Assembly (NCBI GenBank): GCA_963711845.1
Contig: CAVQFR010000014.1
Coordinates: forward strand, 73,644 to 137,643
DNA: 64,000 bases
Origin: an uncultured delta proteobacterium
GTDB taxonomy: Bacteria; Desulfobacterota; BSN033; UBA1163
Direction of reading: 5' to 3'
Every line of letters starts with the position of its first letter. Position 1 is the first letter of the stretch. Below are positions 1 through 46,031 of this stretch, in pieces. A program made the position numbers and the translations under genes. The notes under the pieces were generated by a model. The model searched no databases. It worked only from the letters and a program-made list of their open reading frames with translations, and had not been told where the DNA came from.

Positions 1-185
1 TCCAGGAAGTTTTCATTCGCCATCGTCTTCAGGCCCGATTGGATCAGGTACGAAGCCCTGTTGAGAGCTTCTCGGGAAATATCGACTAAGGAAACCTGAA
101 ACCCTCCTTGGGCGAAAATCTGTGCCATGCCGTAACCCATGACGCCAGCCCCAACAACAACAACCTTTTGGTTTTTCTCCTTCAT
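1..185 (-). CDS. 3-hydroxyacyl-CoA dehydrogenase, N-terminal part (gene continues past window start)
   Basis: Manual minus-strand translation from ATG at 185-183 gives MKEKNQKVVVVGAGVMGYGMAQIFAQGGFQVSLVDI..., a GxGxxG Rossmann N-terminus typical of 3-hydroxybutyryl/acyl-CoA dehydrogenases; absent from ORF track because truncated by the window edge. Confidence 0.7.
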   Translation of the reverse strand, partial: MKEKNQKVVVVGAGVMGYGMAQIFAQGGFQVSLVDISREALNRASYLIQSGLKTMANENFL

Positions 186-207
186 CGGTCTATCCCCTAG
201 TCATCAT

Positions 208-549
208 TTAGTCTAGTTTGACGATGATGACTAACATTGTCGCCGGCTCCGTTCCAACCGTCTCGATACTTCGCTCTTCTCCAGGGGGAATATAGAGCAC
301 ATCGCCGGGGCCAAGCAGGTATTCGTCTTTGTTCTTGCCTCTTACCAACAAAGCGCCCGATATGCCGCAATAGACCCGTTCCGTGGGAGAAGCGTACATT
401 TCAGCTCCGCCCCCGGGGAGGAAATGGGAAACGCTTACATGAAGTCGCCGGCTACCATCTTCTTGACTAACTTTTGTAATCCCGCTCTGGCCAAAGTGCT
501 GTTTAGCCTGTTTCGGCGGTTGGCCTTGATCTTTTTTAATCAGCTTCAT
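208..549 (-). CDS. cupin-domain protein
   Basis: 113-aa ORF with small beta-barrel cupin-like sequence (GDVLYIPPGEE...HVSVSHFLPGGG); same strand and tight spacing with flanking catabolic genes. Confidence 0.55.
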   Translation of the reverse strand: MKLIKKDQGQPPKQAKQHFGQSGITKVSQEDGSRRLHVSVSHFLPGGGAEMYASPTERVYCGISGALLVRGKNKDEYLLGPGDVLYIPPGEERSIETVGTEPATMLVIIVKLD

Positions 550-590
550 TTCGTCACCTCACTTCAAATTCTTTCTCTTCGCTGTAGGTT

Positions 591-1361
591 CTAACCAATC
601 GCTGTCATCCCGCCGTCGAGGTAGATGATCTGGCCCGTGATAAAATCTGAAGCCGGGCAAGCGAGAAAAACAAAAGTGCCCGCGACCTCTTTCGGGTCGG
701 CAACCCGTTTCAGTGGCACGTTACCGAGGTATCTTTGAATCTGCTCTGGAGAGCGTGTCGCGAAAACTTCTGGTTTGGCAACCAAAGAAGGAGCGACAGC
801 ATTCACTTTAATATTATACTGAGCCCATTCCGAAGCCAGTGCCCGCGTCATCATGTCCAGGGCTCCTTTCGAAGCGCAGTAGCCCAGGTTTCCTCCCCAG
901 AGAGTGGCTCGAGAGCCCCTGACGGAAGACAGGTTGATGATTTTTCCCTTCTTGTTTTTTATCATGATTTTGCCAAACTCCCGGCAACAGAACATGACGC
1001 CTTTTACGTTGAGATCAAACAGAGAATCCCAGACATCCGCGGGGAACTCGTCGGCCGGCCTCTTTGTGGCCGACCCGTAGGCATTGACCAGTATATCTAC
1101 GGTGCCAAAGGCCGAGACAACTTCCCTCGCCAGATTAATGATACTCTCTTCATTGTTGGCATCCCCCTGAAGACAAGCGACCTTCACTCCAGTGTCTGCT
1201 TCGATTTTTTTGGCCGCATCCTGTAATTTCTGCATACCTCGACTGGCGATCACGACCTTCGCGCCCTGCTCTGCCATTCCAGCAGCTATCGCGCCGCCGA
1301 TAGCTCCTCCCCCGCCGATAATCACGGCTACTTTGCCGTCCAATCTGAACAGATCACCCAT
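591..1361 (-). CDS. short-chain dehydrogenase/reductase (SDR) family oxidoreductase
   Basis: 256-aa ORF; N-terminal glycine-rich NAD(P)-binding motif (VAVIIGGGGAIGGAIA), NAYG and catalytic Y-x3-K (YCASK). Confidence 0.85.
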   Translation of the reverse strand: MGDLFRLDGKVAVIIGGGGAIGGAIAAGMAEQGAKVVIASRGMQKLQDAAKKIEADTGVKVACLQGDANNEESIINLAREVVSAFGTVDILVNAYGSATKRPADEFPADVWDSLFDLNVKGVMFCCREFGKIMIKNKKGKIINLSSVRGSRATLWGGNLGYCASKGALDMMTRALASEWAQYNIKVNAVAPSLVAKPEVFATRSPEQIQRYLGNVPLKRVADPKEVAGTFVFLACPASDFITGQIIYLDGGMTAIG

Positions 1362-1399
1362 GATTTCTTTCTCCTCCTTTCGCGTATAAGCCTCTGGGT

Positions 1400-2278
1400 T
1401 CAGGCTTTGAGAAGCTTGAGCCCCAGTATCCTGCGTGTCTCATCCGGTGTTGCCGGTTGCTTGCCTAACTCCTGTGCGAATCTGACTGCCCGGGCCACTA
1501 ACTGAGCATTACTCTCAGCAGGTTCTCCCTTTCTGTAAAAAAGGCTGTCTTCAAATCCTACCCGGATAGCCCCACCTAAAATCATCCCGATTGTTGTAAT
1601 GGGAAATTGAGCCTTGCCGGTTGCCAACACACTCCACAGGGTATCCTGGGGCTCCGGAAGATCATCGATAAACCACGTCAGGTGCTTCGGGGTAGCGTCT
1701 ATCCCCCCATGGTACTTATGGCCAAGCACAAATTCCACATAGTAAGGCTTGTCCAAGAACCCTTTTTCAATCAAGTTTCTCACCTCACGAAGGTTTCCGG
1801 GGTTAAACACCTCCATGGATGGTTTAACCCCCGCCTCCTTCATTTTCCCGGCCCAATCTTCAAGAGTGTCACCATATCGAATTGTATACGTGCCTTTATA
1901 GGGGCCGGAGTTTCGTACCATGGTGCCCATGTCCAGTGATGCCATCTCGGGTTTCGGGTCAGCCTGCAAGCAGAGAATCCTATCCTCGACGGGAACCTGG
2001 GGACCAGTGCCTGTCGTGTCTTGAATGATGATATCGCAACCCAGTTCTCTTATCTTGCTGTGTATCTCACTATAGACCTTCGGATCCCCGGTCGGAATTC
2101 CATTCTTATCACGGGCATGGATATGCAGGATGGATGCCCCTTCTTTCCAGCACTCACAGGCTGCTCTTGCGATCTCATCCGGTTGTTCCGGAACATTTGT
2201 ATTCCGTTCTTTCGTGCGAGCCACTCCACCAGTCGTGGCCACCGTAATGATGACTTTATCTTCAGGTAATATCGCCAT
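1400..2278 (-). CDS. beta-keto acid cleavage enzyme (BKACE / 3-keto-5-aminohexanoate cleavage enzyme family, DUF849)
   Basis: ORF 1400..2335; sequence KVIITVATTGG...ILHIHARD...VEFVLG resembles BKACE TIM-barrel family; likely true start at internal Met (MAILPEDKVIIT) at 2278. Confidence 0.75.
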   Translation of the reverse strand: MAILPEDKVIITVATTGGVARTKERNTNVPEQPDEIARAACECWKEGASILHIHARDKNGIPTGDPKVYSEIHSKIRELGCDIIIQDTTGTGPQVPVEDRILCLQADPKPEMASLDMGTMVRNSGPYKGTYTIRYGDTLEDWAGKMKEAGVKPSMEVFNPGNLREVRNLIEKGFLDKPYYVEFVLGHKYHGGIDATPKHLTWFIDDLPEPQDTLWSVLATGKAQFPITTIGMILGGAIRVGFEDSLFYRKGEPAESNAQLVARAVRFAQELGKQPATPDETRRILGLKLLKA

Positions 2279-2386
2279 TTGACTATTCCTCCAGGATCGC
2301 CACGAGCCGAACCATAGACCCGTCCCCTCCCTCAACCCGGAGGGAAAAAGCCGCGATTGTGTATCGAATTCCAGTCACCTCTAACA

Positions 2387-3094
2387 TCAGGGTCTTGTCA
2401 GTTCAATCTTGAATTTGTAAAGGTCAGGGCGGCAATAGCTAATACTCATGAAGACAGGAGTCCGGTTCCTGGCATAGTATTGTCGCTCAATGACGTAAAC
2501 GGGGGCCCTTTTCTCAATGGAAAGATATTTCGAAATTCTTGCATCTGCTAATGCAACAGTCATGCTTTGGAAGGCATGGTGAACCTTGGTTTTAGATTTC
2601 TCTTCGACAAGAAGAATAATTTCGGTAGTTTCTTTAATTTCACTCCGAGAAATCATTTTCCCTAAATGAGGGGGTAAATAAAGGACCGAGTAGCGGGTCG
2701 CACCTTTTGAAGATGAGAAGACTACCTCCATCTGGAAAACCATCTGCCTCGTCCCTGTTTGGAGGAATTTTGCCACAAAGGGAGGGGGGATTGCTTCCTT
2801 ATATTCCAAAACTTTTATTCTTCCTTCCCGAGCCGACGCGATGAGGTTTTCAATTGTTCCCTTATATCTCAAATGTCTCAGTCCCACTTCCTCGCTTACA
2901 AACGTCCCCTTTCCGCGAATTCGGTATATCAACCCCTCATTGATAAGCTCCAATAGTGCCTGACGAACTGTACCCCGACTGACATGATATTCTTGAGATA
3001 GGTCGATTTCTGATGGGACAAGATCCCCTGCCTTGAGTTCATTAGAGAGAATCCTAGCCCTGAGGATGCTTTTTATTTGGAAGTAAAAAGGCAT
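2387..3094 (-). CDS. GntR/HutC-family transcriptional regulator (wHTH plus UTRA effector domain)
   Basis: N-terminal GntR HTH signature (LPSEIDLSQEYHVSRGTVRQALLELINEGLIYRIRGKGTFV) followed by UTRA-like C-terminal domain; heads the co-directional catabolic cluster; start probably internal Met at 3094. Confidence 0.8.
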   Translation of the reverse strand: MPFYFQIKSILRARILSNELKAGDLVPSEIDLSQEYHVSRGTVRQALLELINEGLIYRIRGKGTFVSEEVGLRHLRYKGTIENLIASAREGRIKVLEYKEAIPPPFVAKFLQTGTRQMVFQMEVVFSSSKGATRYSVLYLPPHLGKMISRSEIKETTEIILLVEEKSKTKVHHAFQSMTVALADARISKYLSIEKRAPVYVIERQYYARNRTPVFMSISYCRPDLYKFKIELTRP

Positions 3095-3239
3095 TGGGCC
3101 GTCTTCAAGTATCACGTTTCTCTCTCCTGAAAATGACTTTTGGCTCTACAAAGGTGTGCCCATTTGAACGTCACGAACCCCTGAAAATTGAGACGTGACT
3201 GATTGACTAGATGTCCATACATTACTACACCTGAAAAAA

Positions 3240-3625
3240 ATGTCAAGAAAAAAATTTATTGGAGTGCTTAAATCTTCTTCGGCTTATCGGTATGTGTTTC
3301 ATCGAAACCAGGAACCCATAAAAGATTTTCGTTGGGCATGGGATATCCGCTGCCGGCAAGCGGGCTTGAAAGGGAGCCTATTCCATGACTTCAGAAGAAC
3401 TACGGTAAGGAATATGGTCGGAGCAGGAGTCCCAAAGGAGTGGCAATGAACATCTCGGACCATAACACGCGGAGCGTGTCCGATCGCTGTAACATCGTTA
3501 ATGATCGGGACCTAATAGAAGCAGCTTTGAAGAAACAGGCTTACCATGAGAAGCAGAACGCATTAGTTGGAAGTGATCAGAAGCGGGGAGAGGTTATCCC
3601 TTTCAAACAGGCACAAAATGAGTAG
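3240..3625 (+). pseudogene. tyrosine recombinase/integrase C-terminal remnant (truncated and frameshifted)
   Basis: Two short ORFs in different frames (3240..3449, 3440..3625) together spell an integrase C-terminus: ...LFHDFRRTTVRNMVGAGVPKEW / ...ISDHNTRSVSDRCNIV...; no N-terminal/catalytic core upstream; lies immediately 3' of tRNA-Leu. Confidence 0.55.
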
Positions 3626-3726
3626 TCAAATAAATTTTAACCTTCGTGAGCACAATTTGGCACGGTCACCACAAAATTGAACAAAAAAAGGATTAGCTTC
3701 GGTCTTGCTAACCCCTTGGATATACA

Positions 3727-3815
3727 TGGTGCCTAGGGCCGGACTTGAACCGGCACGGTGGGGGGCCACCGAGGGATTTTAAGTCCCTTGCGTCTACCAA
3801 TTCCGCCACCCAGGC
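3727..3815 (-). tRNA. tRNA-Leu (anticodon UAA), long variable arm, CCA encoded
   Basis: Reverse complement reads GCCTGGGTGGCGGAATTGGTAGACGCAAGGGACTTAAAATCCCTCGG...GGTTCAAGTCCGGCCCTAGGCACCA; 7-bp acceptor stem pairs, anticodon loop CTTAAAA, T-loop GGTTCAAGTCC; closely resembles E. coli leuZ. Confidence 0.9.
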
Positions 3816-3903
3816 AGTCCTATGGGTTAATCGTCACTTCTTGGGATTCTTACTAAGGAATCCATCATTGCCCAGACCATTATCTTCAGAAAATCTCCCC
3901 TAA

Positions 3904-3949
3904 CCCCTCTTTGCCTGTCTAAAGACAGGAAAAGGATACCAAAGAGGGG
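3904..3949. other. nested palindrome (outer CCCCTCTTTG/CAAAGAGGGG enclosing CCTGTCTAAAGACAGG)
   Basis: Read directly; lies between the LVIVD gene 3' end and the tRNA-Leu 5' side. Confidence 0.4.
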
Positions 3950-4100
3950 GATTCCTCTGTCTAACCAATTATGGACTGACTAATAACCAAATTCTCGTTT
4001 AATAGAATTTATAATTCTTAGAAGATTATGTCAATAAAAAATGAAGCTTTATTGAGCAGGTTGATCATTGAAGAGTAAAGGGGACAAGAACGGAAAACTC

Positions 4101-5334
4101 TTACTTCTTATGCCTAAGAATGAAGAGCCCGTGATTCTTGTCCGTGATGTAAATATATCCCCGATTATCGACGATCACGTCTTCTGTCTGGGTGGCCAAT
4201 TCTTTGGGAAGCAGTCCCCTCTTCTTCTTGGGTGAAGCCGGGATGAAATAGGCAATAGGCCTGGGCACGCCCGGGGCAGCTGATGTCGTAAAGCCATAGG
4301 CCTCCACTCTCGTAACAGATATGGATGATGTTATCGACATCCGCAAGACAAGGTTGATGGTGGGGCATGTGGATGTTATGCGGCCCGAACTTTCCTCCGA
4401 GTTCCTGGAAATCTCGAACTCCTAATTCCTCCGGAGGAACCGGGATAGGGAAATTTGCAATTGGTTTGGGTTTCTCCTCATTTGTCATATCCACAACCAA
4501 TGCAAGGTTAAGCGGGTCCCGCTCTTCTTCGAGGATGGCCTCCGTTGTGGCGATCGCCAGTTTCCTCGACGGGATGGGCAAATAGGTGTGAGCTCCCACA
4601 ATGCTTCCAAAATCTCCGATGTCGATGCGGCCGAGTTGGCGAGGATGGGAAAGATCGGAGATGTCCAGGGTGATAAAACCGGCCCGACCATAGGGGAGAT
4701 AAGCTCTCTCTCCTATCACATACGGCGGACCATGGAGTTGATAGAAGCGATCCGCCTTTTCGCCTCCCTCTTCCCATTGTCCTTTAAACCACCACCGTGA
4801 AACCTCTTTGGGGTGGGTCGGATCGCTTATATCCACAGCAACAAAGATGTTTCCTTTATAACCCTTCATGTTGGCCGCAAGATACGCATATTTTCCACCT
4901 GAATAAAAGTTACGGTGGGTTCCAAAGCCTCCGGTTTCAAAAGAGCCCAGTCGCTTGGGATCCGTCGGATTCTTAACATCCCAGATCAGGATGCCTTCAC
5001 CGAAAGGCAGAGAGGGATCGTGTCCCCAGATATCGTTCCGACCCAGGATCCCATCCCCGATTCTCTCCAGAGCGGTGACCATCTTCCCCTGGGCCACCTG
5101 AACTTGTAATGTCCATGTATTGGCCGGACCGGGGATGAATTTGAGAAGCTCGGGTCGAGAGGGACGGGTGATATCCATGATGGTCCAGCCGCGGTGCCAG
5201 AAATGGCCGATATACAAGTACCAGCGGCCCTCCACTTCCTGAATCGCCATCTTGAATCCAGGCCTTTCGTCGAGGTCATGGTATGCGACCGTCTCCATGT
5301 TCTTGCTGATAAAACCCGGACTCTCACTCATCAC
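4101..5334 (-). CDS. LVIVD-repeat beta-propeller protein (apparent frameshift near 3' end)
   Basis: 389-aa ORF with about six repeats of hydrophobic-D-hydrophobic-SDP-x-x-P pattern (ILIWDVKNPTDP, FVAVDISDPTHP, FITLDISDLSHP, LALVVDMTNEEKP, LWLYDIS); final repeat continues in another frame in ORF 4101..4346 (...DVIVDNRGYIYITDKNHGLFIL). Confidence 0.6.
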
Positions 5335-5525: not shown

Positions 5526-6695
5526 TCAAGGGAGTCTCTGTCTAACTCCTCTGATGATATCGACCACATTATTCTGCATCTTTCCATCTTTGATATCTGC
5601 CACACAGATATAAAGGTCGGCGATCACTTGCCCTCGCTCGTCAAAGCGGATCGGTCCCCGCGGGCTGTTCAGGGAGACCTTGGAAATGGCCGCCAGGAAT
5701 TTGTCTTTATCGGAGAGATTCCCTTTAACGCTGGTAGCGGCTGCCAGGATGACCTTGGCGGCATCATAAGCATTCACACTGGGCAACGACGGGTCGGTAT
5801 TAAATTTGGCTCGAAAAGCGGCCACGAACTTCTTATTTTCGGGAAGATCGATGGTCGGTGTGTACGGAGTGACCACCGTATTCCCTTTGATAAAATCCTT
5901 GATCGAATCCATGATCGTTTCTTCATTGATGCCGATCCAGCCGGTCAGGGGTATCTTATCCTTGAGACCGAAGTCCACGTATTGGGAATCAAATTTCACT
6001 GCATCCGCGCCCGCATACCAGGCATATACCGCATCGATATCCCTTCTCATCTGCGAAAGGTAAGGCCCGAAATCAGGCGTATTCATCGGCGTGTAGACCT
6101 CCTGAAGAATCTGCCCTCCCATCTGCTCAAAGCCTTTTTTGAAAGCAGCCACCGAATCACGGCCTGCCGGAAAATCAATGCCAAACCCAACCATTTTACG
6201 ATATCCTTTTTTCTTATAAAGCCACTCCGCAAAGGGGAAATTCGCCTGGCTCGGTATCACCTGGAGGCGAAACGTATACTTGTTGGCCAGGGGCGGAAGC
6301 GTCAGATTCTCCGGCATGGCCAGGGGTACAATCCAGGGAACCTTCTGTTGGACAACGTAGTCCCTCATGGCCACGGCAGCAGCAGCGTTGACAGGCCCCA
6401 TCAGGACATCGATATGGTCCTTCTCCACCAGTTTCTGGGTCTTGGTCAGTGCAATGGCCGGTGACATGACCTCGTCTTCTATGATAACCTTGATGGTCTT
6501 GCCGGCGACACGGTTGGACACTTCATCAAGAGCCAGGGTAAATCCTCTGATGATGTGCGTGCCCTGGAATGTCATTGGACCTGTCTGGGACGCCAGAAGA
6601 CCGATCGTGATCGATTCTTCCGCGCTGAAGGCTGCCAGAGGGAATACGAAGAGGACGATAAAAAGGATGAGTAGCGTGTGCCGGGTCTTTTTCAT
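5526..6695 (-). CDS. ABC transporter substrate-binding protein, branched-chain amino acid (LivK/Leu-Ile-Val-binding) family
   Basis: 389-aa ORF with N-terminal signal peptide (MKKTRHTLLILFIVLFVFPLAAFSA) and type-I periplasmic binding protein fold sequence; divergent from permease/ATPase genes. Confidence 0.85.
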   Translation of the reverse strand: MKKTRHTLLILFIVLFVFPLAAFSAEESITIGLLASQTGPMTFQGTHIIRGFTLALDEVSNRVAGKTIKVIIEDEVMSPAIALTKTQKLVEKDHIDVLMGPVNAAAAVAMRDYVVQQKVPWIVPLAMPENLTLPPLANKYTFRLQVIPSQANFPFAEWLYKKKGYRKMVGFGIDFPAGRDSVAAFKKGFEQMGGQILQEVYTPMNTPDFGPYLSQMRRDIDAVYAWYAGADAVKFDSQYVDFGLKDKIPLTGWIGINEETIMDSIKDFIKGNTVVTPYTPTIDLPENKKFVAAFRAKFNTDPSLPSVNAYDAAKVILAAATSVKGNLSDKDKFLAAISKVSLNSPRGPIRFDERGQVIADLYICVADIKDGKMQNNVVDIIRGVRQRLP

Positions 6696-6846
6696 ACTGA
6701 CTCCTTTCTCTATTTTGTGATCATCTGAATTCGGTATACCCCTTTCCTCTCCGTGGTGAAATGAGAAGAAGGATTTACAATGAACTAAAATTATATTAAA
6801 CCCATGTCTGTGTCAAGATGTCCGCACCAGATAATCCATAATCGTC

Positions 6847-6867
6847 ATCCTGAACTTGTTTCAGGAT
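6847..6867. promoter_or_regulatory. candidate operator palindrome ATCCTGAA-N5-TTCAGGAT
   Basis: Perfect 8-5-8 inverted repeat in the divergent promoter region between the binding-protein gene and permease gene. Confidence 0.4.
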
Positions 6868-6890
6868 CTATGGGTTATCGAAAATGAGAG

Positions 6891-6911
6891 ATGCTGAAAA
6901 AATTTCAGCAT
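6891..6911. promoter_or_regulatory. candidate operator palindrome ATGCTGAAA-AAA-TTTCAGCAT
   Basis: Perfect 9-3-9 inverted repeat, shares CTGAA/TTCAG half-sites with the palindrome at 6847..6867. Confidence 0.4.
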
Positions 6912-7030
6912 GACAGGGATATCGTTAAGGTTTTGAAATTCGATTACGGATTATGTCCGGATGAAATCTTCTTGATTTTAACTCTCCCTCGATATACCAT
7001 GCATCTAATTCTGGAACAACCCCTTAAGTC

Positions 7031-8926
7031 ATGATCTCCTACTGGCTCACGCATATCGTTAACGGACTCTCCTTCGGCATGCTCCTTTTTGTCCTGGCCG
7101 CAGGGCTATCGCTCATTTTCGGGTTATGCCGGATCGTCAACCTGTCCCATGGTTCTTTCTACCTGTTGGGAGGGTATATTGGATTCTCAACGGTTCGCTT
7201 GACCGGAAATTTTCCCCTTGCCGTCCTCCTCGCCATGCTCTCCATGGCCGTTCTGGGAATACTGACGGAACGCATTCTCCTTCGCCGGTTCCGGGTCAAG
7301 CCCCTGGCCCAGGTGTTGTTGACCTTCGGTCTTATCTTCGTTTTTCAGGACGCGGCCATATGGATATGGGGAGGAACGCCTGTCCTGTTGAAGAAACTTC
7401 CTATCCTCACCGGCGCGACGAACCTCTTCGGTTTTTACTATCCGACCTACAGACTTCTCATCCTGTTGATCGGGTTGGTCATCCTTTTCTTTCTCTGGTG
7501 GCTCCTGATACGCACCCGGCTGGGCATCTTCATCCGGGCGGCGGTTGACGACGGAGAAATGGCGAATGGGGTCGGGATTCGCATGAATCTTCTCATGACC
7601 ATGGCCTTCGGTTTTGGCACCCTGTTGACAGGACTGGCCGGGAGTATCGGGGCGCCCTTTCTGGGGGTCTATCCCGGTCTGGATATCGAGGTGCTGCTCT
7701 ATGCGATGGCCGTGGTCATCGTCGGCGGTCTGGGCAGCTTGAAGGGCTCTTTCCTGGGCGCCCTCATGGTTGGCTTAGTCGACTCGATGGCCAAGGCCCT
7801 CTGGCCGGAGACGGGCATGTTTTCGATGTTTGCCCTGATGGCCATCGTATTGATTCTGAAACCTACCGGTCTTTTCGGCCTTCCCATTGCACCCATCAGC
7901 CAGGCATCGGTGTCGGAGGAGATCTTTCTTGAAGCGATTCCTTCAGGCGCCGGACATCCGTTGGGGTGGAGACGGAGGGCGTTGATCCATCCCTCATTCA
8001 TCTGGATCATGACGGCCTGTCTGGTGGCTGCAGGCCTGCTCTGTCCGATCATTCTTTCTACATACTACGTCAGACTGTTTACCCTGGCCTTGATTTGGGC
8101 GATCTTTGCCATGAGCCTCGATCTCATTCTCGGCCTGGGAGGAATCATCTCTCTCGGCCATGCGGTATTTTTCGGAATCTCTGCCTACACGATCGGATTG
8201 GCAGCTCGGTTCTTAACGCCCAATCTTTTCCTCCAGATCGGCCTAGCTCTGTTCGTCTCTGCCTTCGCTGCCCTGGTGTTGGGATGGCTTCTGCTCAGGA
8301 GTCGCGGGGTCTATTTCATGATGTTGACCATCGCCTTTTCCCAGGTCTTTCGGGCGATTGCCCATTCCTGGCGTTCCGTGACAGGCGGAGGGGATGGCCT
8401 CTCCGGTTTTGTACGGCCCATGTGGATGACTTCTGTCGAAACCTTCTACTACTTCGCCCTCTTCGTATTCATCGCCGTCTTTCTCTTCCTCCGATTTTTC
8501 GTCAAATCGCGGGTCGGAATCTCCCTGATCGGGATCCGCGAAAGTGAAAAACGCATGACGAGCCTTGGCTATCACGTAGACCACATCAAGCTTCTCTCCT
8601 TCGTCGTGTCGGGCGGCCTCGGCGGGATCGCCGGCCTCCTGAACGTCTATTTCAACGGGTACGTCAGCCCTGATTATTTTTCTGTGGATACATCCGCACA
8701 GGCCATCATCATGATCATTCTTGGCGGTGCAGGAACATTGATCGGACCCATCCTCGGATCGTTCTTCGTCATCTTCATGCAGAACATCTTGAGCGCCGTG
8801 ATGGAGCGATGGACCCTGGTCCTCGGCGTTCTCTTCATCCTGGTGGTGATCGGCGCCCCGGCAGGAATGGTGGGACTTTGGAGAAAACAATGGCACAAAT
8901 TCAGCCGGAGACAATCCCCGTCCTGA
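7031..8926 (+). CDS. branched-chain amino acid ABC transporter permease, fused LivH-LivM
   Basis: 631-aa polytopic membrane ORF; N-half LivH-like (…VNLSHGSFYLLGGYIGF…), C-half LivM-like (…LDLILGLGGIISLGHAVFFGISAYT…). Confidence 0.9.
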   Translation: MISYWLTHIVNGLSFGMLLFVLAAGLSLIFGLCRIVNLSHGSFYLLGGYIGFSTVRLTGNFPLAVLLAMLSMAVLGILTERILLRRFRVKPLAQVLLTFGLIFVFQDAAIWIWGGTPVLLKKLPILTGATNLFGFYYPTYRLLILLIGLVILFFLWWLLIRTRLGIFIRAAVDDGEMANGVGIRMNLLMTMAFGFGTLLTGLAGSIGAPFLGVYPGLDIEVLLYAMAVVIVGGLGSLKGSFLGALMVGLVDSMAKALWPETGMFSMFALMAIVLILKPTGLFGLPIAPISQASVSEEIFLEAIPSGAGHPLGWRRRALIHPSFIWIMTACLVAAGLLCPIILSTYYVRLFTLALIWAIFAMSLDLILGLGGIISLGHAVFFGISAYTIGLAARFLTPNLFLQIGLALFVSAFAALVLGWLLLRSRGVYFMMLTIAFSQVFRAIAHSWRSVTGGGDGLSGFVRPMWMTSVETFYYFALFVFIAVFLFLRFFVKSRVGISLIGIRESEKRMTSLGYHVDHIKLLSFVVSGGLGGIAGLLNVYFNGYVSPDYFSVDTSAQAIIMIILGGAGTLIGPILGSFFVIFMQNILSAVMERWTLVLGVLFILVVIGAPAGMVGLWRKQWHKFSRRQSPS

Positions 8927-9666
8927 AAATAACGGACCTCTTCAAAAGCTACGGCGGGCTGGAAGTTCTGGCGGACATCCGTTTAGAGATCCATCGCAGC
9001 GAATTACACGCCTTGATCGGGTCGAACGGCGCCGGAAAAACGACGCTCTTCGACATCATCTGCGGGTTTATCAAGCCCTCCCGGGGGAGTATTCAATTTC
9101 TGGGGAAGGAGATCACCTCCCTCCCTCCCTTCAGGCACGCCCATCTGGGAATAGGCCGGACGTTCCAGATCACAACGCTTTTCCGTTCCATCAGCGTCCT
9201 CGATAATCTGCGGCTCACCCTCGAGGCCCTCCCCGCCACCCGCGTCCCCTTCTTGAAGTCAAACAGATTCTCCGAGAAGAACCTGGATCCCGTGAAGGGC
9301 CTGCTCAACACATGGGGGTTGTGGGAAACGAGGAACATCCCCGTAGCCGCGCTGCCGTATGGCGTCCAGAGGCAATTGGAAATCATCATGGCCCTTCTCC
9401 AAAAGCCAAGACTGCTGATGCTCGACGAGCCCATGGCAGGACTTGAGGCGGGAAGCCGAGAATCGATGATGCGCCTGATCAAGGAATCCGGTAAGGAAAC
9501 GACCATCTTTTTTATCGAGCACGATATGAACGTGGCATTGCAACTGGCAGATCGCGTGACCGTTTTGCACCAGGGGAAAATCGTTGCTCAAGGGAGTCCT
9601 GTGCAGGTTCAAAACAACAGAGAGGTTCAACGACTCTATTTCGGGTATGAAGACAAAACGGCATAG
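8890..9666 (+). CDS. branched-chain amino acid ABC transporter ATP-binding protein (LivG-like)
   Basis: Walker A GSNGAGKTT, ABC signature region, Walker B LLMLDEPMAGL; start taken at ATG 8890 (MAQIQPETIPVLKITDLFKSYGG), overlapping permease 3' end. Confidence 0.9.
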   Translation: MAQIQPETIPVLKITDLFKSYGGLEVLADIRLEIHRSELHALIGSNGAGKTTLFDIICGFIKPSRGSIQFLGKEITSLPPFRHAHLGIGRTFQITTLFRSISVLDNLRLTLEALPATRVPFLKSNRFSEKNLDPVKGLLNTWGLWETRNIPVAALPYGVQRQLEIIMALLQKPRLLMLDEPMAGLEAGSRESMMRLIKESGKETTIFFIEHDMNVALQLADRVTVLHQGKIVAQGSPVQVQNNREVQRLYFGYEDKTA

Positions 9667-9768
9667 AGCGTAGAGCATAGAACATAGCGCATGGCGTAAC
9701 TGAGGAAGGCAAGAATGGGTCGAGCCTGCCCGCTGCAGGCAAGGTGCCCTCCAGGCATAGGGTATTAG

Positions 9769-10518
9769 ATGGAAAGTAGACCAATCCTAATAGTGGAAGA
9801 GATTCATACCTATTACGGCCAGAGCCATATTCTCCAGGGGGTCACCCTCTCCCTGGAGCAGGGGGCCATCGTTGCTGTGCTCGGCCGTAACGGCGTGGGG
9901 AAGACGACGCTCATAAGATCTCTCATCGGATTCAACATCCCCAGAGAAGGGAAGATTTATTTTAAAGGTGAGGAGATTACCCGGATGGAGCCCTACGGGA
10001 GGGTCGATGTTGGGTTGGCCCTGGTTCCTCAAGGACGCCGGATCTTTGGCTCATTGACTGTGGAAGAGAACTTGCTTTCCTCGGCAAAGAGGAGAGAAAA
10101 AAGAAAGATCTGGGATCAAAACGGAATTTTTGACCTCTTCCCTCAGCTCAAAGAGAGAAAAAAAGTCAGGGCTTCCCATCTGAGCGGAGGAGAACAGCAG
10201 ATGTTGGCCATTGGCCGGGCCCTTGTCAGCAATCCCGACCTTCTCCTCCTGGATGAACCCACGGAAGGACTTTCTCCTTCTGTGATCCGGGAATTGATCA
10301 AGATTCTTTCTCAACTGGCAAAAGAGGGACAATCCGTCCTCCTTGTCGAACAGAATCTGCAATTTGCCCTGAGTCTTGCAAGTTACCTGTTCATCCTGAG
10401 CAGAGGAAAGATGGTTTATGAGTCAACGCCCTCGGAGCTCTCCCAAAAACCTGAGGTCCAGCTCGCCTATCTCGGGGTTGGCCAGTCCGAGACGAAAGAG
10501 ATGAAACCATCCGAATAA
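9769..10518 (+). CDS. branched-chain amino acid ABC transporter ATP-binding protein (LivF-like)
   Basis: Walker A GRNGVGKTT, signature LSGGEQQML, Walker B LLLLDEPTEGL. Confidence 0.9.
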   Translation: MESRPILIVEEIHTYYGQSHILQGVTLSLEQGAIVAVLGRNGVGKTTLIRSLIGFNIPREGKIYFKGEEITRMEPYGRVDVGLALVPQGRRIFGSLTVEENLLSSAKRREKRKIWDQNGIFDLFPQLKERKKVRASHLSGGEQQMLAIGRALVSNPDLLLLDEPTEGLSPSVIRELIKILSQLAKEGQSVLLVEQNLQFALSLASYLFILSRGKMVYESTPSELSQKPEVQLAYLGVGQSETKEMKPSE

Positions 10519-12627: not shown

Positions 12628-14077
12628 CTATCTTTTAAGTACGGGCACGGAATATGGCCCTTCTCGAATGAAGGCCACAGTCGGTTCAATCCCTTTTTCT
12701 CGATAACGGTAAACAGCAAATTGGACAGCCTTCTGTACCATCTCCTGGGCCTTCTCAACGGCAGGCTTTATCCTTTTTCCCTTCATAAAATCGAGGCCAC
12801 AGACTCCCGGAAGGATGCAGTAATTTTCTCTCTCAATTTCCAGGGAACAATAAATCAGCCCGTCCTCTCCGATTTTTCTCAGGACCTTCCCCCAGACCTC
12901 GGGTTCCCATTGATCCTTTGTAAACTTCCAGCCGGAAGTTTTCAGTAAATCGAGATAGCCGTCCGGTCCCTGCAATTTTAGCAGGTGAATCAGACTTCTG
13001 TATTCCGGAGACCCGATGGGGTTGATGAAATCCCGGTTATTCGCTGCGATGATGATGACACCCCCTTCTTTCACCGCCGGGATAGCGCCCACCCCTGCCT
13101 TGGCCGTCTGGTAATGATCTCTTCCCACATATCCGCTGTGAGTCAGTACGATATCGAACTCCTCATCAAGAGGGATCTCCGCATAGCCCTTGATCATTTC
13201 AAAGGCCTTCATATTTCCCTCCACCATATCCCCTGTAAATACTCTCACGAGGCGCAAATCTTTATCCAGGTTGACGTTGATAACAAAATCAACTCCGACC
13301 GTCTGGGCAACTTCCAAAGCCTCCTCGTGACATGGATTCCCTTCGAGGACGAGGTTCGTTGCCCGGGGGTCTTCAAGATAAGGCAGGCCCGTGAAATCTT
13401 TGAATGGTCTTGACGTCCACCAATCCCGGACAAACGGATTTTCTCCCACCGGAGATCCCTGTGAAAAAATGACTCTCGACGAGTCCTGTCGCAATCTTCA
13501 GGTCCGCAAAATAGAAGTCCCGATTGACATAGACATGGGTCCCTCTTTTTGTCTTTCCGATACTCTCCAAAAGATCGTTATTCTCACAATCGTGGTCCAG
13601 GATCGTGTACTGTTTAACCACTTCCTCCCCGTACATCTCCACCTTCTCATCCGGGGTGCTTGCTCGATGCATTCCTGTCGCTACAATAATCTTGATATTT
13701 TCTTTCTTAATCCCTGAAGACTCCAGGCGTCCAAGCAGCGGGGGGAGGATGCCGCCTTCTCCTTTATAAGGAACGGGCCTTGTAATATCGGAAACAGCAA
13801 TGGCCACAGACATCTGTTCGGGAGGTTTCCCTTTTTTCCGGATGATCTCTTCCAAAGGGGGACTGCTGATGGGGGCTAGAAAAGCCTGCTCAAAGGCCTT
13901 TTGGGGATCCGGTAATACGGCAACCTCCTTCATGGTGAGTTCAACACTGTTTGGAGGCACCCAAACCTCTATCGCGTTTCTTCCAAACTCTACTGAGATT
14001 TTCTTCCAATCCTTCATATCAATTTTTTTAATAGCCTTTTTAAGGTCGCTTCGCATCGTGGTTCTCCTGACGATCAT
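12628..14077 (-). CDS. LarA-family (nickel-dependent lactate racemase-like, DUF2088) protein, interrupted by apparent -1 frameshift
   Basis: Two overlapping ORFs (13373..14077 N-part with VAIAVSDITRP, IVATGMHR, FFTGISGGRKSVCPG; 12628..13494 C-part with LEGNPCHEE) together match one LarA-like protein; frame change near 13380-13400 at a G/C run. Confidence 0.7.
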
Positions 14078-40430: not shown

Positions 40431-42896
40431 TCACTTTGCAGAATCTTTCCTCCGGGGAATTCCCAGCTCCTTCTCGACCTGTAAGATTCTATCGGTCGTC
40501 TTGATGACGGTATCAGGGTTGAGGGAGATGCTGTCGATGCCACACCGGACCAGAAACTCGGCGAATTCCGGATAATCGCTGGGAGCCTGGCCGCAGATGC
40601 CAATCTTCCTTCCATTCTTCTTGGCGCTTTCAATCAATGATTGAACCATTTTTTTCACCGCCGGATCCCGCTCATCGAAGATATGAGAAACTTTCTCTGA
40701 ATCACGATCCAATCCCAATACCAACTGGGTCAGATCATTCGATCCGATGGAGAATCCGTCAAAAACCTCGGCAAATTCATCAGCCATGATCACATTGCTG
40801 GGGATCTCACACATCACATAGATCTCAAGGCCATTTTGCCCCTGGATCAGACCGTGCTTTCTCATCTCCGCAATGACCAACCTCCCCTCCTCCACCGTCC
40901 TGCAGAAGGGAATCATCAATTTTACATTGGTCAAACCCATCTCATTCCGAACCTTTTTCATCGCCTTGCATTCAAGAGAAAACCCTTCCTGATAAGACTC
41001 ATCATAATACCGGGAGGCTCCCCGGAAACCAATCATGGGGTTGTCTTCAACAGGTTCAAATTCGCTTCCACCGATGAGATTGGCGTACTCATTGCTCTTA
41101 AAATCGCTCATTCTCACGATGACATCTTTAGGATAAAAGGCAGCAGCGATCTTGGCCACCCCTTGAGCCAGCCGATCGACGAAGAAGACCTCCTTATCTT
41201 CATACCCGATGGTCAACTGTTCAATCTCCTTTTTAATATGACTATCGCTGATTGAATCAAATCGGACAAGCGCCATGGGGTGGATTCGTATAAAATTATT
41301 GATAATGAATTCCAGTCTGGCCAGACCCACCCCGTCATTGGGAATAAAGGAAAGGTGGAAAGCATTGTCCGGGTTTCCCACATTCATCATGATTTTTGTT
41401 TGAGGCTTCTCCAGATGTGCCATATCGAAGTGCCTCACTTCATAATCGAGGATCCCTTCGAAAACCAATCCCGTCTCCCCTTGCGCACAACAAACGGTGG
41501 CACTTCGATAGTCTTTCAAAAGCTCGCTTCCATCCCTTGTTCCCACCACACAGGGAACGCCCAGCTCCCGGCTGATGATGGCCGCATGACATGTCCTTCC
41601 CCCGCGGTCGGTCACAATGCCCGAGGCAATTTTCATGATGGGTTCCCAGTCCGGGTCCGTCATCTGGGTGACCAATATCTCGCCCTTCTTAAACTTCTCT
41701 ATCTCTCTTGGACTGGTGATGACATTGATGGGGCCAGCGCCAATCTTTTCACCGACGCTCTTCCCCTGGACCAAAACATTCCCCTTCTCCTTTAAGTAGT
41801 AGGTCTCCAGAACATTCATCGCTCGCTGGGATTTTACCGTCTCGGGCCGTGCTTGAAGAATAAAGAGTTCCTGGGTAATACCATCCTTGGCCCACTCAAT
41901 ATCCATGGGCATGTAGACCCCTGCTTTTTTCGAATAGTGCTCTTCGATCCTCACCCCCCATTGGGCAAGGAGGATAATCTCTTCGTCGCTCAGGATGAAA
42001 TCCGCCCTTTCTTGTGCGGAGACAGGAACATTCTTGGTTGACCCCTCTCCCTCCAGGGTGTAAATCATTTTGATCTCTTTACTTCCGAGGGTTTTCTGAA
42101 TGATGGGTTTATAATTTCCTTTAATGCAGGGTTTAAATACATAGAATTCATCGGGATTGATAACTCCCTGAACAATATTCTCCCCTAATCCATAAGCACC
42201 TGTGATGTACACCACGTCAGGAAAGCCGGATTCTGTATCGATCGTGAACATCACCCCAGAACAGGCCTTATCGGAGCGCACCATCTTCTGAACTCCGATA
42301 GAAAGAGCGACCGAAAAGTGGTCAAACCCCCTATGGGTTCTGTAGGAGATGGCGCGGTTGGTAAAAAGGGAGGCAAAACATCGTTTGCAGGCTTGAACGA
42401 GGGCGTATTCCCCGCGGATGTTGAGATAAGTCTCCTGCTGACCGGCAAAACTCGCACCAGGAAGGTCTTCGGCTGTTGCGCTGCTACGGACCGCCACATC
42501 CGTATCCTCCCCATACTCCTTGCACAACTTCCGATAGGCTTTAACAACCTCCTCAACGATCTCCCTGGGAAACTCCAAACTGTGGATAAGCCTCCGGACC
42601 CGGCTTCCCCTCTCTGAAAGGTTTTCCACATTTTCGACATCGAGATCAGAAAAGATCTCTCGAATATTTTCTTTGATCTTTGGTTTACTCTTACCATCAT
42701 GCCAGTCTTGGACAATCCCTTCGTCCAAAAGGGCATGGTAGGCATTCACGGTTACAGCAAATCCATTAGGGACACTCACCCCTTGTTTCGTCAGTTCCTT
42801 TCGCATCTCTCCCAAGGAGGCATTCTTTCCTCCAACTGTGGGAAGATCGTCGAGTCCAATTTCGTCAAACCAAAGAATGTAAGGTTTTTCCCCCAT
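40431..42896 (-). CDS. ppsA: phosphoenolpyruvate synthase (pyruvate, water dikinase)
   Basis: 821-aa ORF with PEP-utilising enzyme mobile domain (phosphohistidine region GGRTCHAAIISRELGVPCVVG) and PEP/pyruvate-binding TIM-barrel. Confidence 0.95.
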   Translation of the reverse strand: MGEKPYILWFDEIGLDDLPTVGGKNASLGEMRKELTKQGVSVPNGFAVTVNAYHALLDEGIVQDWHDGKSKPKIKENIREIFSDLDVENVENLSERGSRVRRLIHSLEFPREIVEEVVKAYRKLCKEYGEDTDVAVRSSATAEDLPGASFAGQQETYLNIRGEYALVQACKRCFASLFTNRAISYRTHRGFDHFSVALSIGVQKMVRSDKACSGVMFTIDTESGFPDVVYITGAYGLGENIVQGVINPDEFYVFKPCIKGNYKPIIQKTLGSKEIKMIYTLEGEGSTKNVPVSAQERADFILSDEEIILLAQWGVRIEEHYSKKAGVYMPMDIEWAKDGITQELFILQARPETVKSQRAMNVLETYYLKEKGNVLVQGKSVGEKIGAGPINVITSPREIEKFKKGEILVTQMTDPDWEPIMKIASGIVTDRGGRTCHAAIISRELGVPCVVGTRDGSELLKDYRSATVCCAQGETGLVFEGILDYEVRHFDMAHLEKPQTKIMMNVGNPDNAFHLSFIPNDGVGLARLEFIINNFIRIHPMALVRFDSISDSHIKKEIEQLTIGYEDKEVFFVDRLAQGVAKIAAAFYPKDVIVRMSDFKSNEYANLIGGSEFEPVEDNPMIGFRGASRYYDESYQEGFSLECKAMKKVRNEMGLTNVKLMIPFCRTVEEGRLVIAEMRKHGLIQGQNGLEIYVMCEIPSNVIMADEFAEVFDGFSIGSNDLTQLVLGLDRDSEKVSHIFDERDPAVKKMVQSLIESAKKNGRKIGICGQAPSDYPEFAEFLVRCGIDSISLNPDTVIKTTDRILQVEKELGIPRRKDSAK

Positions 42897-43136: not shown

Positions 43137-43202
43137 GAGAATTGATTTTTGAATGAATTATTATTAATATAAGATGTTATCCTAGAGAAGGAAGTGAAAT
43201 TC

Positions 43203-46031
43203 ATGAAAAGTTCGAAATATGTCTACCTTTTTGAAGAAGCCGATGGGACCGATAAGAAACTCCTTGGCGGGAAAGGAGCGGGTTTGGCCGAAATGACCCG
43301 TATGGGTCTCCCTGTTCCGCCTGGATTTATCGTCACCACCGAGGCTTGTCTTCATTTTTATGAGAACAAAAAGAGACTTCCTAAAGGCCTCCTGGAAGAG
43401 GTGGAAGTCAATCTGAAAATGGTGGAGGAAAAAACAGGCAAAAAACTTGGAAGCGCTCAAAATCCCCTCTTCTTCTCTGTCCGGTCGGGCGCGGCGATGT
43501 CCATGCCTGGAATGATGGACACCATTCTCAATTTGGGCTTAAACGAGAAGACTCTTGAGGGTTTGATCCAGATCACGTCGGATGGAAGATTTGCCTATGA
43601 TGCTTACCGAAGATTTATTCAACTTTTCGGAAAGATCGCCTTGGGGTTGGAAGAAAAGGAATTTGACCAAATCCTTAACCAGACAAAAGAAAGAGTGGGG
43701 GCCAAAGAGGATATTGATCTCAATGCTGATTATCTCAAGGACATTTGTAAACAATATCTGGGATTAATCAAAAAAAGGACGGGAACCCCTTTTCCTCAAG
43801 ACCCGATGGTTCAACTCAGACTCGCCATTGAAGCGGTTTTCAAATCCTGGATGGGCAAGAGGGCGGTGGATTATCGAAAGGAATTCAACATCACCCGTGA
43901 CATGGCGAACGGAACCGCCGTCAATGTCTGCACCATGGTTTTTGGGAACATGGGTTTTGACTCGGCAACGGGGGTTGCGTTTACACGAGACCCGGGCACA
44001 GGAGAGAACATTCTCTATGGGGAATATCTTGTGAATGCCCAGGGTGAAGATGTCGTGGCCGGGATCCGGACACCCAAACCCATCCAAGAGATGAAGAAGG
44101 AAATGCCGAAAACCTACCGAGAGATGGAGCGGATCAGAAAAATCTTGGAAGAGCATTTTCATGAAGTTCAGGACTTCGAGTTCACCGTGGAGAAGGGGAC
44201 CCTCTATATCCTTCAAACTCGAAATGGGAAGATGAACGCTCAGGCGATCGTTCGAACTTCTAAAGACATGGTCTCTGAAAAACTAATTAATAAGGAAAAA
44301 GCTGTCCTGAGATTGAAACCTCAAGAGCTGGAACAACTCCTCCATAAGCGGATCGATCCAAATTTCAAGGGGAAACCAGTCTGCGTCGGCCTCGCAGCTT
44401 CCCCGGGAGCAGCCTCCGGAAAAGCAGTGTTCGATGCGGATGAAGCAGAAAGGTTGGGAAAACTTGGGCAAAAACTCATATTGGTGCGAGAGGAAACGAA
44501 ACCCGAGGATATTCATGGCTTCTTTGCTGCCCAGGGGATCTTGACGAGCCGGGGAGGAAAGACCTCCCATGCCGCAGTGGTCGCAAGGGGTATGGGCAAA
44601 CCCTGTGTATCTGGATGCGAAGAGTTGCACATCGATCCACAGAAGAGAGAGACCACCGTAGGGAATATTCACATCAAAGAAGGAGATTTCATCACCATCG
44701 ATGGCTCCAGAGGCGAGGTCTATCTGGGAGAGGTCCCTACCGTAGACCCTGAAATCAGCAAAGACCTCCTTACGCTCCTGGGTTGGGGGGATGGGATAAG
44801 AACGTTGGGCGTTCGGGCCAATGCCGATACCCCTGAGGCCGCGATCAAAGCAAGGCAGCTGGGTGCAGAAGGGATCGGTCTCTGCCGAACAGAGAGAATG
44901 TTCAACGCCGCGGATCGGCTCCCCATTGTTCGGGAGATGATCTTGGCGGGGTCGAAAGAGAAGAGGGCAGAAGCGATTGCAAAGCTTCTTCCCATGCAGC
45001 GCAGCGACTTTAAGGAGATCTTCAGGGCCATGGAAGGACTGCCGGTGACCATCCGTCTCCTCGACCCACCGCTTCATGAATTTCTCCCATCCGCCGAAGA
45101 ACTGGCCGAAGAATTGAGAAAGCTGAAGGAGATTGATACCGCCTTTTCCACCATGGAAAACATCTCTGATGCGATGAAGTTTCTGGATCCCTCTTTCCGC
45201 GAATCACTGGGACTCCTCGACCACGTGGTGACGGATATCGTCGAGATTAAAGAGAAGAGGCTCGATAAGAAGCTCATCCGAAAAGAGCAGGAAACTCTCA
45301 GGAAGGTGAAAGAGATGATGGAGGTCAACCCCATGCTGGGTCATCGAGGGGTCAGGTTGGGGATTACCTATCCAGAGATCTATAAGATGCAGATTCAGGC
45401 GATTCTGGAGGCCGCCGCCGAGTTGATCAAAGAAGGTCTTGATATTCAACCTGAAATTATGGTCCCCCAAGTCTGCACCGCCCAAGAATTGAAATGGGTT
45501 TCTCAACTCGTCTTAAAGGTCCAAAAGGAAGTGGAGAAACAATTTAGAATCCGGATCCCCTTCAAATTCGGGACGATGATCGAAGTGGTGAGAGCCTGTA
45601 TGAGGGCCGGGAGATTGGCGGAGGTGGCAGACTTCTTCTCCTTCGGGACCAACGACCTCACTCAGGCCACCTTCTCTTTCTCCAGAGAAGATGCGGAAAA
45701 CAAATTCCTGCCCCTTTACAATCAGCGGAAGATTCTCCAGGACAATCCCTTTGAAGTATTGGATGTGAAAGGCGTGGGAAGGTTAATGATGATCGCGATC
45801 GAGTGGGGAAGGAGGACAAAACCGGATCTGAAGATTGGGATCTGTGGTGAACATGGTGGGCATCCGGAATCGGTCGAATTCAGTCACAGCATCGGACTTT
45901 CCTATGTCAGTTGCTCTGCTCCACGCCTCCCGATTGCGCGTCTGGCAGCCGCCCATGCCAAATTGAAAGAGAAGGAGAAAAAACCTTCGGAAAAATACGA
46001 CCCCGATGTTTTTGGCATACCCTCTGTTTAA
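43203..46031 (+). CDS. ppdK: pyruvate, phosphate dikinase
   Basis: About 940-aa ORF with PPDK N-terminus (KYVYLFEEADG…GGKGAGLAEM), phosphohistidine domain (GGKTSHAAVVARGMGKPCVSG) and C-terminal PEP-binding barrel; ATG 43203 preferred (SD AGAAGGAAG). Confidence 0.95.
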   Translation: MKSSKYVYLFEEADGTDKKLLGGKGAGLAEMTRMGLPVPPGFIVTTEACLHFYENKKRLPKGLLEEVEVNLKMVEEKTGKKLGSAQNPLFFSVRSGAAMSMPGMMDTILNLGLNEKTLEGLIQITSDGRFAYDAYRRFIQLFGKIALGLEEKEFDQILNQTKERVGAKEDIDLNADYLKDICKQYLGLIKKRTGTPFPQDPMVQLRLAIEAVFKSWMGKRAVDYRKEFNITRDMANGTAVNVCTMVFGNMGFDSATGVAFTRDPGTGENILYGEYLVNAQGEDVVAGIRTPKPIQEMKKEMPKTYREMERIRKILEEHFHEVQDFEFTVEKGTLYILQTRNGKMNAQAIVRTSKDMVSEKLINKEKAVLRLKPQELEQLLHKRIDPNFKGKPVCVGLAASPGAASGKAVFDADEAERLGKLGQKLILVREETKPEDIHGFFAAQGILTSRGGKTSHAAVVARGMGKPCVSGCEELHIDPQKRETTVGNIHIKEGDFITIDGSRGEVYLGEVPTVDPEISKDLLTLLGWGDGIRTLGVRANADTPEAAIKARQLGAEGIGLCRTERMFNAADRLPIVREMILAGSKEKRAEAIAKLLPMQRSDFKEIFRAMEGLPVTIRLLDPPLHEFLPSAEELAEELRKLKEIDTAFSTMENISDAMKFLDPSFRESLGLLDHVVTDIVEIKEKRLDKKLIRKEQETLRKVKEMMEVNPMLGHRGVRLGITYPEIYKMQIQAILEAAAELIKEGLDIQPEIMVPQVCTAQELKWVSQLVLKVQKEVEKQFRIRIPFKFGTMIEVVRACMRAGRLAEVADFFSFGTNDLTQATFSFSREDAENKFLPLYNQRKILQDNPFEVLDVKGVGRLMMIAIEWGRRTKPDLKIGICGEHGGHPESVEFSHSIGLSYVSCSAPRLPIARLAAAHAKLKEKEKKPSEKYDPDVFGIPSV

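Follow-up and report, generated by a model that had tools for sequence, protein, structure and literature searches.

The minus-strand region at positions 1–3115 of a 64,000-nucleotide (nt) stretch of DNA (the window, i.e. the whole stretch analysed; contig CAVQFR010000014.1 of an uncultured delta proteobacterium, Desulfobacterota) probably forms the half nearest the promoter of an operon for trihydroxybenzene/phloroglucinol catabolism, a Desulfobacterota variant of a known pathway. The pathway itself has been known since 2023. What is new in this locus is that a cyclase-family gene, resembling that of the ring-opening enzyme DPGC, has been reduced to its last 32 codons while the other genes have been kept by selection. 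[quoted passage not shown] All five lie on the minus strand and had been named correctly in an earlier sequence-only reading of this DNA. The features of the region are as follows.

3–185, minus strand: TfD-like dehydrogenase, first 61 codons, extending past the window start (NCBIfam 3HCDH models, E = 1e-13)
208–549, minus strand: single-domain cupin of 113 aa (Pfam Cupin_2, E = 1.3e-9)
591–1361, minus strand: classical SDR of 256 aa (Pfam adh_short_C2, E = 2e-58)
1400–2278, minus strand: BKACE of 292 aa (PF05853, full length, E = 2.8e-88)
2286–2381, minus strand: remnant of a cyclase-family (DPGC-like) gene, last 32 codons (tblastn against the intact cyclase of locus L013, E = 7e-10)
2387–3115, minus strand: GntR/HutC-type regulator of 242 aa, winged helix-turn-helix plus UTRA domain (Pfam GntR and UTRA)

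An anaerobic phloroglucinol pathway, PGR-DPGC-TfD-TAL, has been demonstrated biochemically in Clostridium scatologenes (Zhou et al. 2023, PMC10470551). Dihydrophloroglucinol, the product of PGR, undergoes ring opening by DPGC to (S)-3-hydroxy-5-oxohexanoate; oxidation by TfD then gives triacetate, from which, together with acetyl-CoA, TAL forms acetoacetate and acetoacetyl-CoA. Gram-negative sulfate reducers were already listed as carrying the cluster (PMC10470551). In the Desulfobacterota variant, phloroglucinol would either be imported or arise from pyrogallol through a transhydroxylase whose gene lies downstream in the related locus L035. The SDR would use NADPH to reduce phloroglucinol to dihydrophloroglucinol, and hydrolytic ring opening, for which related clusters encode a cyclase-family DPGC-like enzyme, would yield 3-hydroxy-5-oxohexanoate. 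This free acid would be oxidised to 3,5-dioxohexanoate by the 3HCDH-family protein, after which the BKACE would move the acetoacetyl moiety to CoA using acetyl-CoA, with release of acetoacetate and acetoacetyl-CoA. A DUF35/thiolase pair encoded past the window start would then convert acetoacetyl-CoA to two acetyl-CoA. The GntR/HutC protein would act as the pathway regulator, with the genes forming one transcript. The activities of this BKACE/SDR/TfD-like clade on phloroglucinol, dihydrophloroglucinol and triacetate are predictions from sequence. The general chemistry proposed earlier, i.e. conversion of a beta-hydroxy acid to a beta-keto acid followed by a BKACE reaction of the latter with acetyl-CoA to give acetoacetate and an acyl-CoA, was right.

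The gene context of relatives carries this assignment. The same gene order was observed in more than 20 independent contigs, indicating that the cluster is no chance juxtaposition. The window BKACE had no exact-sequence match in the database, and a 99% relative (P0001) stood in for it. BKACE homologues of at least 70% identity formed a tight clade restricted to Desulfobacterota metagenome-assembled genomes and metagenomes. Relatives at 71–79% identity exhibited the order IclR or GntR, cyclase (PF04199), BKACE, SDR, cupin, 3HCDH, TRAP/TTT transporter and DUF35/thiolase. Across the range of 55–79%, the block of BKACE, SDR, (cupin) and dehydrogenase was found with a cyclase-family hydrolase, often beside pyrogallol-phloroglucinol transhydroxylase genes. 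A second BKACE clade, of 49–59% identity, was found in Syntrophaceae, Peptococcaceae, Moorella and many metagenome contigs; here the cyclase, SDR, TfD-like and thiolase genes were again adjacent. The transhydroxylase genes AthL/BthL were adjacent in Moorella sulfitireducens (E = 2.7e-270 to PDB 4V4C) and in several metagenome contigs. The cyclase of the relatives was nearer to CsDPGC (29% identity, E = 2e-25; the CsDPGC and CsTfD sequences were read from a supplementary figure by optical character recognition, which makes the percentages approximate) than to isatin hydrolase (E = 5e-10).

The closest relatives extend the locus beyond the window start. Examination of the gene at that boundary, as had been recommended, yielded a complete 319-aa dehydrogenase in both L001 and L035. 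In L001 (98% nt identity) the full TfD-like gene is followed by a DUF35 gene (OB_ChsH2_C) and a thiolase gene of the SCP-x/archaeal type. L035 (91% nt identity) continues with TctB-TctA-TctC (a TTT transporter), an 821-aa molybdoenzyme and the start of its beta subunit. The best PDB match of this 821-aa enzyme was the large subunit of pyrogallol hydroxytransferase (E = 4e-166), the next family scoring 272 bits, half the score. The relatives L035 and Moorella L030 thus resemble the trihydroxybenzene pathway of Pelobacter acidigallici (transhydroxylase PDB 4V4C) in holding an AthL/BthL-type molybdoenzyme at the locus, and the P. acidigallici route from pyrogallol through phloroglucinol to acetate matches the gene content of relatives. 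The difference is that the transhydroxylase lies outside the window, its predicted presence in the window genome being drawn from the 91% relative and its predicted substrate being pyrogallol or hydroxyhydroquinone. The DUF35 and thiolase proteins resemble archaeal-type thiolase/DUF35 pairs and matched models for the benzoylsuccinyl-CoA thiolase BbsA/BbsB and a Methanothermococcus acetyl-CoA acetyltransferase, although all scores were well below the cut-offs and both genes lie outside the window, in L001 and L035 only.

Two further loci were recorded during this comparison. In the cultured acetogen Moorella sulfitireducens (L030 1–16861; JANRHG010000009.1), cupin, TfD, BKACE and SDR genes lie between two AthL/BthL pairs, accompanied by a TRAP transporter, an acyl-CoA dehydrogenase and a thiolase, with no cyclase gene within 8 kb; this species would be a tractable organism for pathway testing. 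In L013 (1–2678), a 716-aa (cut) Mo/W enzyme and a Fer4_11 subunit are encoded directly upstream of an IclR-cyclase-BKACE cluster. This molybdoenzyme was considered as a transhydroxylase, found to be acetylene-hydratase-like instead (PDB 2E7Z, E = 2e-102) and not used as evidence; the transhydroxylase link draws on L030, L035 and the metagenome loci.

The BKACE matched PF05853 (DUF849) with 296 bits against a cut-off of 24.8 and over profile positions 1–274 of 274. Alignment to 2Y7D showed that the zinc ligands (Kce His46, His48 and Glu230) and the catalytic Glu143, Arg226 and Asp231 are kept, and these residues were invariant in a 20-sequence alignment of the clade. The position of Kce Glu14, which binds the 5-amino group of the substrate, is Val/Ala in the window BKACE (TGG-VA motif). 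In a survey of 114 loci, the residue following the TG[GA] motif sorted with gene context: a hydrophobic residue accompanied phloroglucinol-type neighbours, and Glu (TGA-E) marked genuine Kce-type sequences, 42–45% identical, without such neighbours. Phloroglucinol-type neighbours were also absent from loci with 'xH-GK'-type BKACEs. The clade of the window BKACE is itself embedded in SDR, TfD, cyclase and AthL contexts. The sequence-only reading had considered the BKACE substrate unknown; the context of relatives (i.e. a cyclase-family hydrolase, a TfD-like protein, an SDR and adjacent transhydroxylase genes) indicates 3,5-dioxohexanoate. As this context is the PGR-DPGC-TfD-TAL enzyme set, the window BKACE is most likely a triacetate (3,5-dioxohexanoate) acetoacetate-lyase, a prediction that gives a large, uncharacterised clade of BKACEs a probable substrate. 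No phloroglucinol, cyclase or cupin contexts are mentioned in the NetSyn BKACE paper.

BKACEs with Trp at the Kce Glu14 position, as in CsTAL, were observed elsewhere in the survey (TGS-W type; L090, L105 and L109, and also L107, L108 and L112) and are 42–46% identical to the window BKACE. In L090, L105 and L109 they were paired with a TfD-like gene, with no SDR or cyclase detected at the thresholds used. The CsTAL primer-derived peptides NVECWG and WGALGIG occurred together in none of the 114 loci.

The sequence-only reading had called the partial gene a 3-hydroxyacyl-CoA dehydrogenase. The family is right, as indicated by the NCBIfam 3HCDH models, but the CoA-contact residues are missing. 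The 61 codons in the window are 95% identical to the L001 orthologue, whose full-length sequence, aligned with CsTfD, FpTfD and the Hbd structure 4KUH, lacks the Hbd CoA contacts Lys56 and Asn221. The catalytic Ser, His and Asn are kept in the L001 orthologue in the same alignment, the window itself holding the N-terminus only. An NRxQHA motif, an internal insertion and a C-terminal extension are shared with TfD. As the CoA contacts are missing and the TfD motifs are shared, the protein most likely acts on a free acid, as TfD does, a role read from its aligned residues. The SDR is the sole SDR of the conserved block across loci and has an ASR motif after beta-2, i.e. the NADPH type; by analogy, it would be the equivalent of phloroglucinol reductase, reducing an aromatic ring and not a keto acid. 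No structure named phloroglucinol reductase was found among the best 60 of 92 SDR matches, and neither the cyclase nor the TfD-like protein nor the SDR is named by any NCBIfam model.

The 108-nt interval between the GntR and BKACE genes, overlooked previously, holds what a deletion has left of the 3' end of a cyclase-family gene. It translates to EVTGIRYTIAAFSLRVEGGDGSMVRLVAILEE followed by a stop codon, and the remnant is 75% identical to residues 221–252 of the intact L013 cyclase. The stop codon, at 2283–2285, lies 4 nt before the BKACE ATG, the same spacing as in intact clusters. Intact cyclase genes were present in the orthologous clusters L011–L014, L016, L018 and L037, with the order GntR-cyclase-BKACE in L016 and L018. 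Since the regulators that head these two intact clusters are 52–54% identical to that of the window, the present arrangement reflects an internal deletion of ~0.8 kb and not the insertion of a foreign regulator. The same deletion junction was found in two independent relatives, L001 and L035, with a frameshift in the remnant of L001 and many non-conservative changes in that of L035.

Selection on the locus was estimated as dN/dS (the ratio of non-synonymous to synonymous substitution rates) by the Nei-Gojobori method, for the window against L035 or for L001 against L035, with dS values of 0.25–0.47. The seven kept genes exhibited values of 0.05–0.22 (regulator 0.22, BKACE 0.07, SDR 0.11 and cupin 0.07 for the window; TfD-like gene 0.10, DUF35 0.19 and thiolase 0.05 for L001) as compared to 0.76 for the cyclase remnant. 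All other open reading frames (ORFs) are intact in the three lineages that share the deletion. As the kept genes are under purifying selection while the remnant drifts, the deletion is an old one, and the remaining operon has stayed functional. A separate lineage of 71% identity exhibited a cyclase frameshift at the same place in each of three assemblies (L008 9239–9996, L009 6579–7335 and L010 4503–5259), with a glycyl-radical enzyme, its activase and an aldehyde:ferredoxin oxidoreductase among the neighbours in L008–L010. In L010 (14023–15193), all that is left of the nearby AthL-like and BthL-like genes is a fused fragment (AthL residues 4–219 followed by BthL 116–275).

Because the DPGC-like gene has been deleted yet the other genes remain under purifying selection, ring opening must come in trans. 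It is most likely performed by an unlinked cyclase-family paralogue, or else by another enzyme. Second or tandem cyclase copies were common in related loci (L018, L037, L033, L055, L056, L059, L066, L068 and L078). That a non-homologous enzyme opens the dihydrophloroglucinol ring in this organism, e.g. the cupin, which lacks His ligands and has a RemF-like fold, is quite improbable; a sister lineage may use a creatininase-family hydrolase. In four clusters of one Desulfobacterota lineage, a PF02633 creatininase-family protein of 300 aa occupies the exact cyclase slot (L002 5461–6363, L003 473–1375, L015 8993–9892 and L019 1595–2494), and no cyclase remnant was observed in these clusters. This arrangement suggests non-orthologous replacement of the ring-opening hydrolase by a creatininase-family metallohydrolase in the sister lineage. 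If true, a cupin or creatininase-family ring opener would represent a retro-Claisen C-C hydrolase of a new type, arisen by non-orthologous displacement in a known pathway.

Clusters of this type carry the cupin as a conserved accessory gene, with orthologues in the same slot at more than 15 loci. The cupin was present in every cluster of at least 70% identity and in some more distant clusters. Invariant residues are H18, S41-H42-F43-L44-P45, G47, G48, E57, Y60, G65, E91 and R93. On a reading of the motifs made without structural superposition, cupin motifs 1 and 2 have no canonical His metal ligands; E50, E57 and R93, which are invariant or nearly so, occupy these places together with the variable residue 52. 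An AlphaFold2 model built from database homologues had a pLDDT of 92.8, and its best fold matches were TM1459 and the RemF cyclase; these metal-dependent cupins are closest in fold, yet the window cupin lacks their His ligands. Co-occurrence did not support the cupin as a DPGC substitute: the cyclase-less loci L057 and L031 are also without a cupin, and many clusters hold both genes. A role as tautomerase or isomerase, with dihydrophloroglucinol or triacetate as the substrate, would be a guess.

The resemblance to the C. scatologenes cluster is one of gene families. Orthologous loci hold the same four (SDR, cyclase-family hydrolase, CoA-independent 3HCDH and BKACE) plus a thiolase; the dehydrogenase lacks the CoA contacts, as in TfD, and the BKACE lacks the amino-binding Glu of Kce. 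There are also differences, and several findings weigh against a phloroglucinol operon. The defining feature of the PGR-DPGC-TfD-TAL cluster, an intact DPGC (PF04199), is not in the window, where only the 32-codon 3' remnant was found, and no cyclase, creatininase or transhydroxylase homologues were detected elsewhere in the 64 kb. The transhydroxylase link for the window lineage comes from a single 91%-identical contig (L035). Identity to the C. scatologenes DPGC and TfD is ~30% (approximate, as above). The best named matches of the SDR were gluconate 5-dehydrogenases, below the cut-off. CsTAL Trp16 is not conserved, being Val/Ala in the window BKACE, and all NCBIfam equivalog cut-offs were missed by this protein. 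With NF053538, the model for 3,5-dioxohexanoate:acetyl-CoA acetone transferase, the BKACE scored 194.5 bits in two fragments against a cut-off of 430, which is lower than its score of 262 with the Kce model; NF053538 names the same predicted reaction, but its profile, of 310 positions, describes another BKACE subfamily. Lacking the Trp that replaces Glu14 and missing the equivalog cut-offs, the BKACE is not demonstrably a member of the characterised CsTAL clade. The sequence-only reading had named placement in a characterised clade of known substrate as grounds for its refutation; the context implies a substrate for the clade, which answers this only in part. These points leave room for the same families acting on another substrate, i.e. 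another reducible aromatic or alicyclic compound of the 1,3-dioxo or polyhydroxy type (e.g. hydroxyhydroquinone, a substituted phloroglucinol or a dione derived from resorcinol) or an imported open-chain beta-hydroxy acid, with a BKACE substrate other than triacetate. The associated TRAP/TTT transporters usually carry carboxylates, nothing in the Clostridium cluster corresponds to the conserved cupin or the DUF35/SCP-x thiolase, and the DPGC gene is dispensable in cis, all of which would fit such a substrate. This possibility is nevertheless regarded as unlikely: SDR, cyclase, CoA-independent 3HCDH and BKACE genes recur with AthL/BthL genes, whose known product is phloroglucinol, and the retention of the SDR under selection speaks against an open-chain acid simply being imported.

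Decay of the whole locus was also considered, i.e. a pathway inactivated when its ring-opening hydrolase was lost, with the other genes turning into pseudogenes. The reduction of the cyclase gene to 32 codons, the proximity of the operon to a degraded integrase and a tRNA, and the frameshifted cyclase and fused AthL/BthL fragments of the related L008–L010 are in keeping with a relic. This explanation is very improbable and was largely refuted by the dN/dS analysis, in which the genes intact in all three deletion-sharing lineages contrast with the drifting remnant, frameshifted in L001. A lysine-fermentation (Kce) module or a carnitine-type module (carnitine dehydrogenase plus BKACE) is extremely improbable. 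Kce is the best PDB (E = 5e-48) and NCBIfam match of the BKACE, with the same fold and family and all zinc and catalytic residues, and a 3HCDH-family dehydrogenase beside a BKACE is also the carnitine arrangement. Against this, the BKACE reached 261.9 bits with the Kce equivalog, whose cut-off is 382, and has Val/Ala in place of Glu14. Genes for lysine aminomutase, 3,5-diaminohexanoate dehydrogenase and (3-aminobutyryl-CoA) ammonia-lyase were found neither in the window nor in any related locus, and the true Kce-type (TGA-E) sequences, only 42–45% identical, lack this context. The carnitine dehydrogenase models scored 125.7 and 106.3 bits against cut-offs of 592 and 414, respectively. Both modules were ruled out by residues, scores and context, and a phloroglucinol operon remains the preferred explanation.

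Transcription of the genes as one unit, proposed earlier under control of the GntR/HutC regulator, is plausible because the intergenic gaps are short (108, 38, 41 and 22 nt, in the order from GntR to dehydrogenase) and no terminator-like site was found on the minus strand of positions 1–4200. Promoter scanning produced no more matches than in shuffled sequence and a search for operator palindromes gave no obvious one. The regulator combines an N-terminal GntR winged helix-turn-helix (PF00392, E = 1.2e-18) with a C-terminal UTRA effector domain (PF07702, E = 2.8e-18) and scored below the cut-off of every named NCBIfam equivalog. Its end had been placed at 3094, which is an internal ATG. The GTG at 3115 is preceded by the Shine-Dalgarno sequence AGGAGAGAG, and L001 and L035 carry the same 242-aa regulator ORF; on these sequence features GTG 3115 is more likely the start than ATG 3094. 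A GntR gene was also the first gene of the L032, L042, L044, L047 and L059 clusters.

When flavonoids and tannins are broken down anaerobically, phloroglucinol is the common funnel, and what becomes of it matters for the storage of carbon in peat and anoxic sediments. The Desulfobacterota version of the pathway has a different gene set from that of C. scatologenes, with GntR/HutC or IclR regulators, uptake by TRAP/TTT transporters rather than the major facilitator superfamily, an extra conserved cupin without His ligands, an archaeal/SCP-x thiolase with a DUF35 partner and a linked transhydroxylase. The window copy shows that a supposedly key ring-opening gene can leave the operon while all else stays under selection. 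Surveys using DPGC as the only marker gene would miss such organisms. Candidates for an alternative ring-opening enzyme are the cupin, the creatininase-family protein and unlinked cyclase paralogues.

Two features lie between the operon and the remainder of the window.

3240–3625, plus strand: probable tyrosine-recombinase (integrase) C-terminal remnant, degraded and in two frames (frame-joined PF00589 match)
3727–3815, minus strand: tRNA-Leu(UAA) (ARAGORN)

With frames joined, the integrase remnant matched PF00589 positions 108–159 of 172 weakly (E = 0.006, below the gathering score); neither fragment alone had a Pfam match. The remnant lies between the operon and the tRNA-Leu gene, which is a likely island junction because its 3' end faces both the remnant and the operon. 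L001 matches the window from the 3' end of the tRNA inward only, its tRNA-like 5' part being different and degenerate. This arrangement suggests that the operon is at the edge of an old tRNA-associated island.

The remaining window content consists of housekeeping genes. A 389-aa LVIVD-repeat protein (PF08309; 4165–5334, minus strand) without an NCBIfam match is encoded between the tRNA-Leu gene and a Liv-type ABC transporter cluster (5526–10518), which includes a fused 631-aa double permease. At 12628–14077 (minus strand), an overlapping pair of ORFs (288 and 234 aa) may represent a frameshifted or split LarA-like gene; a Lar_N match was obtained for the upstream ORF only and the other had no Pfam match. 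Two divergent genes at 40431–42896 (minus strand) and 43194–46031 (plus strand) encode PEP-utilising enzymes of 821 and 945 aa, respectively, both with PPDK_N, mobile and PEP-binding domains, i.e. paralogues resembling PEP synthase or pyruvate phosphate dikinase.

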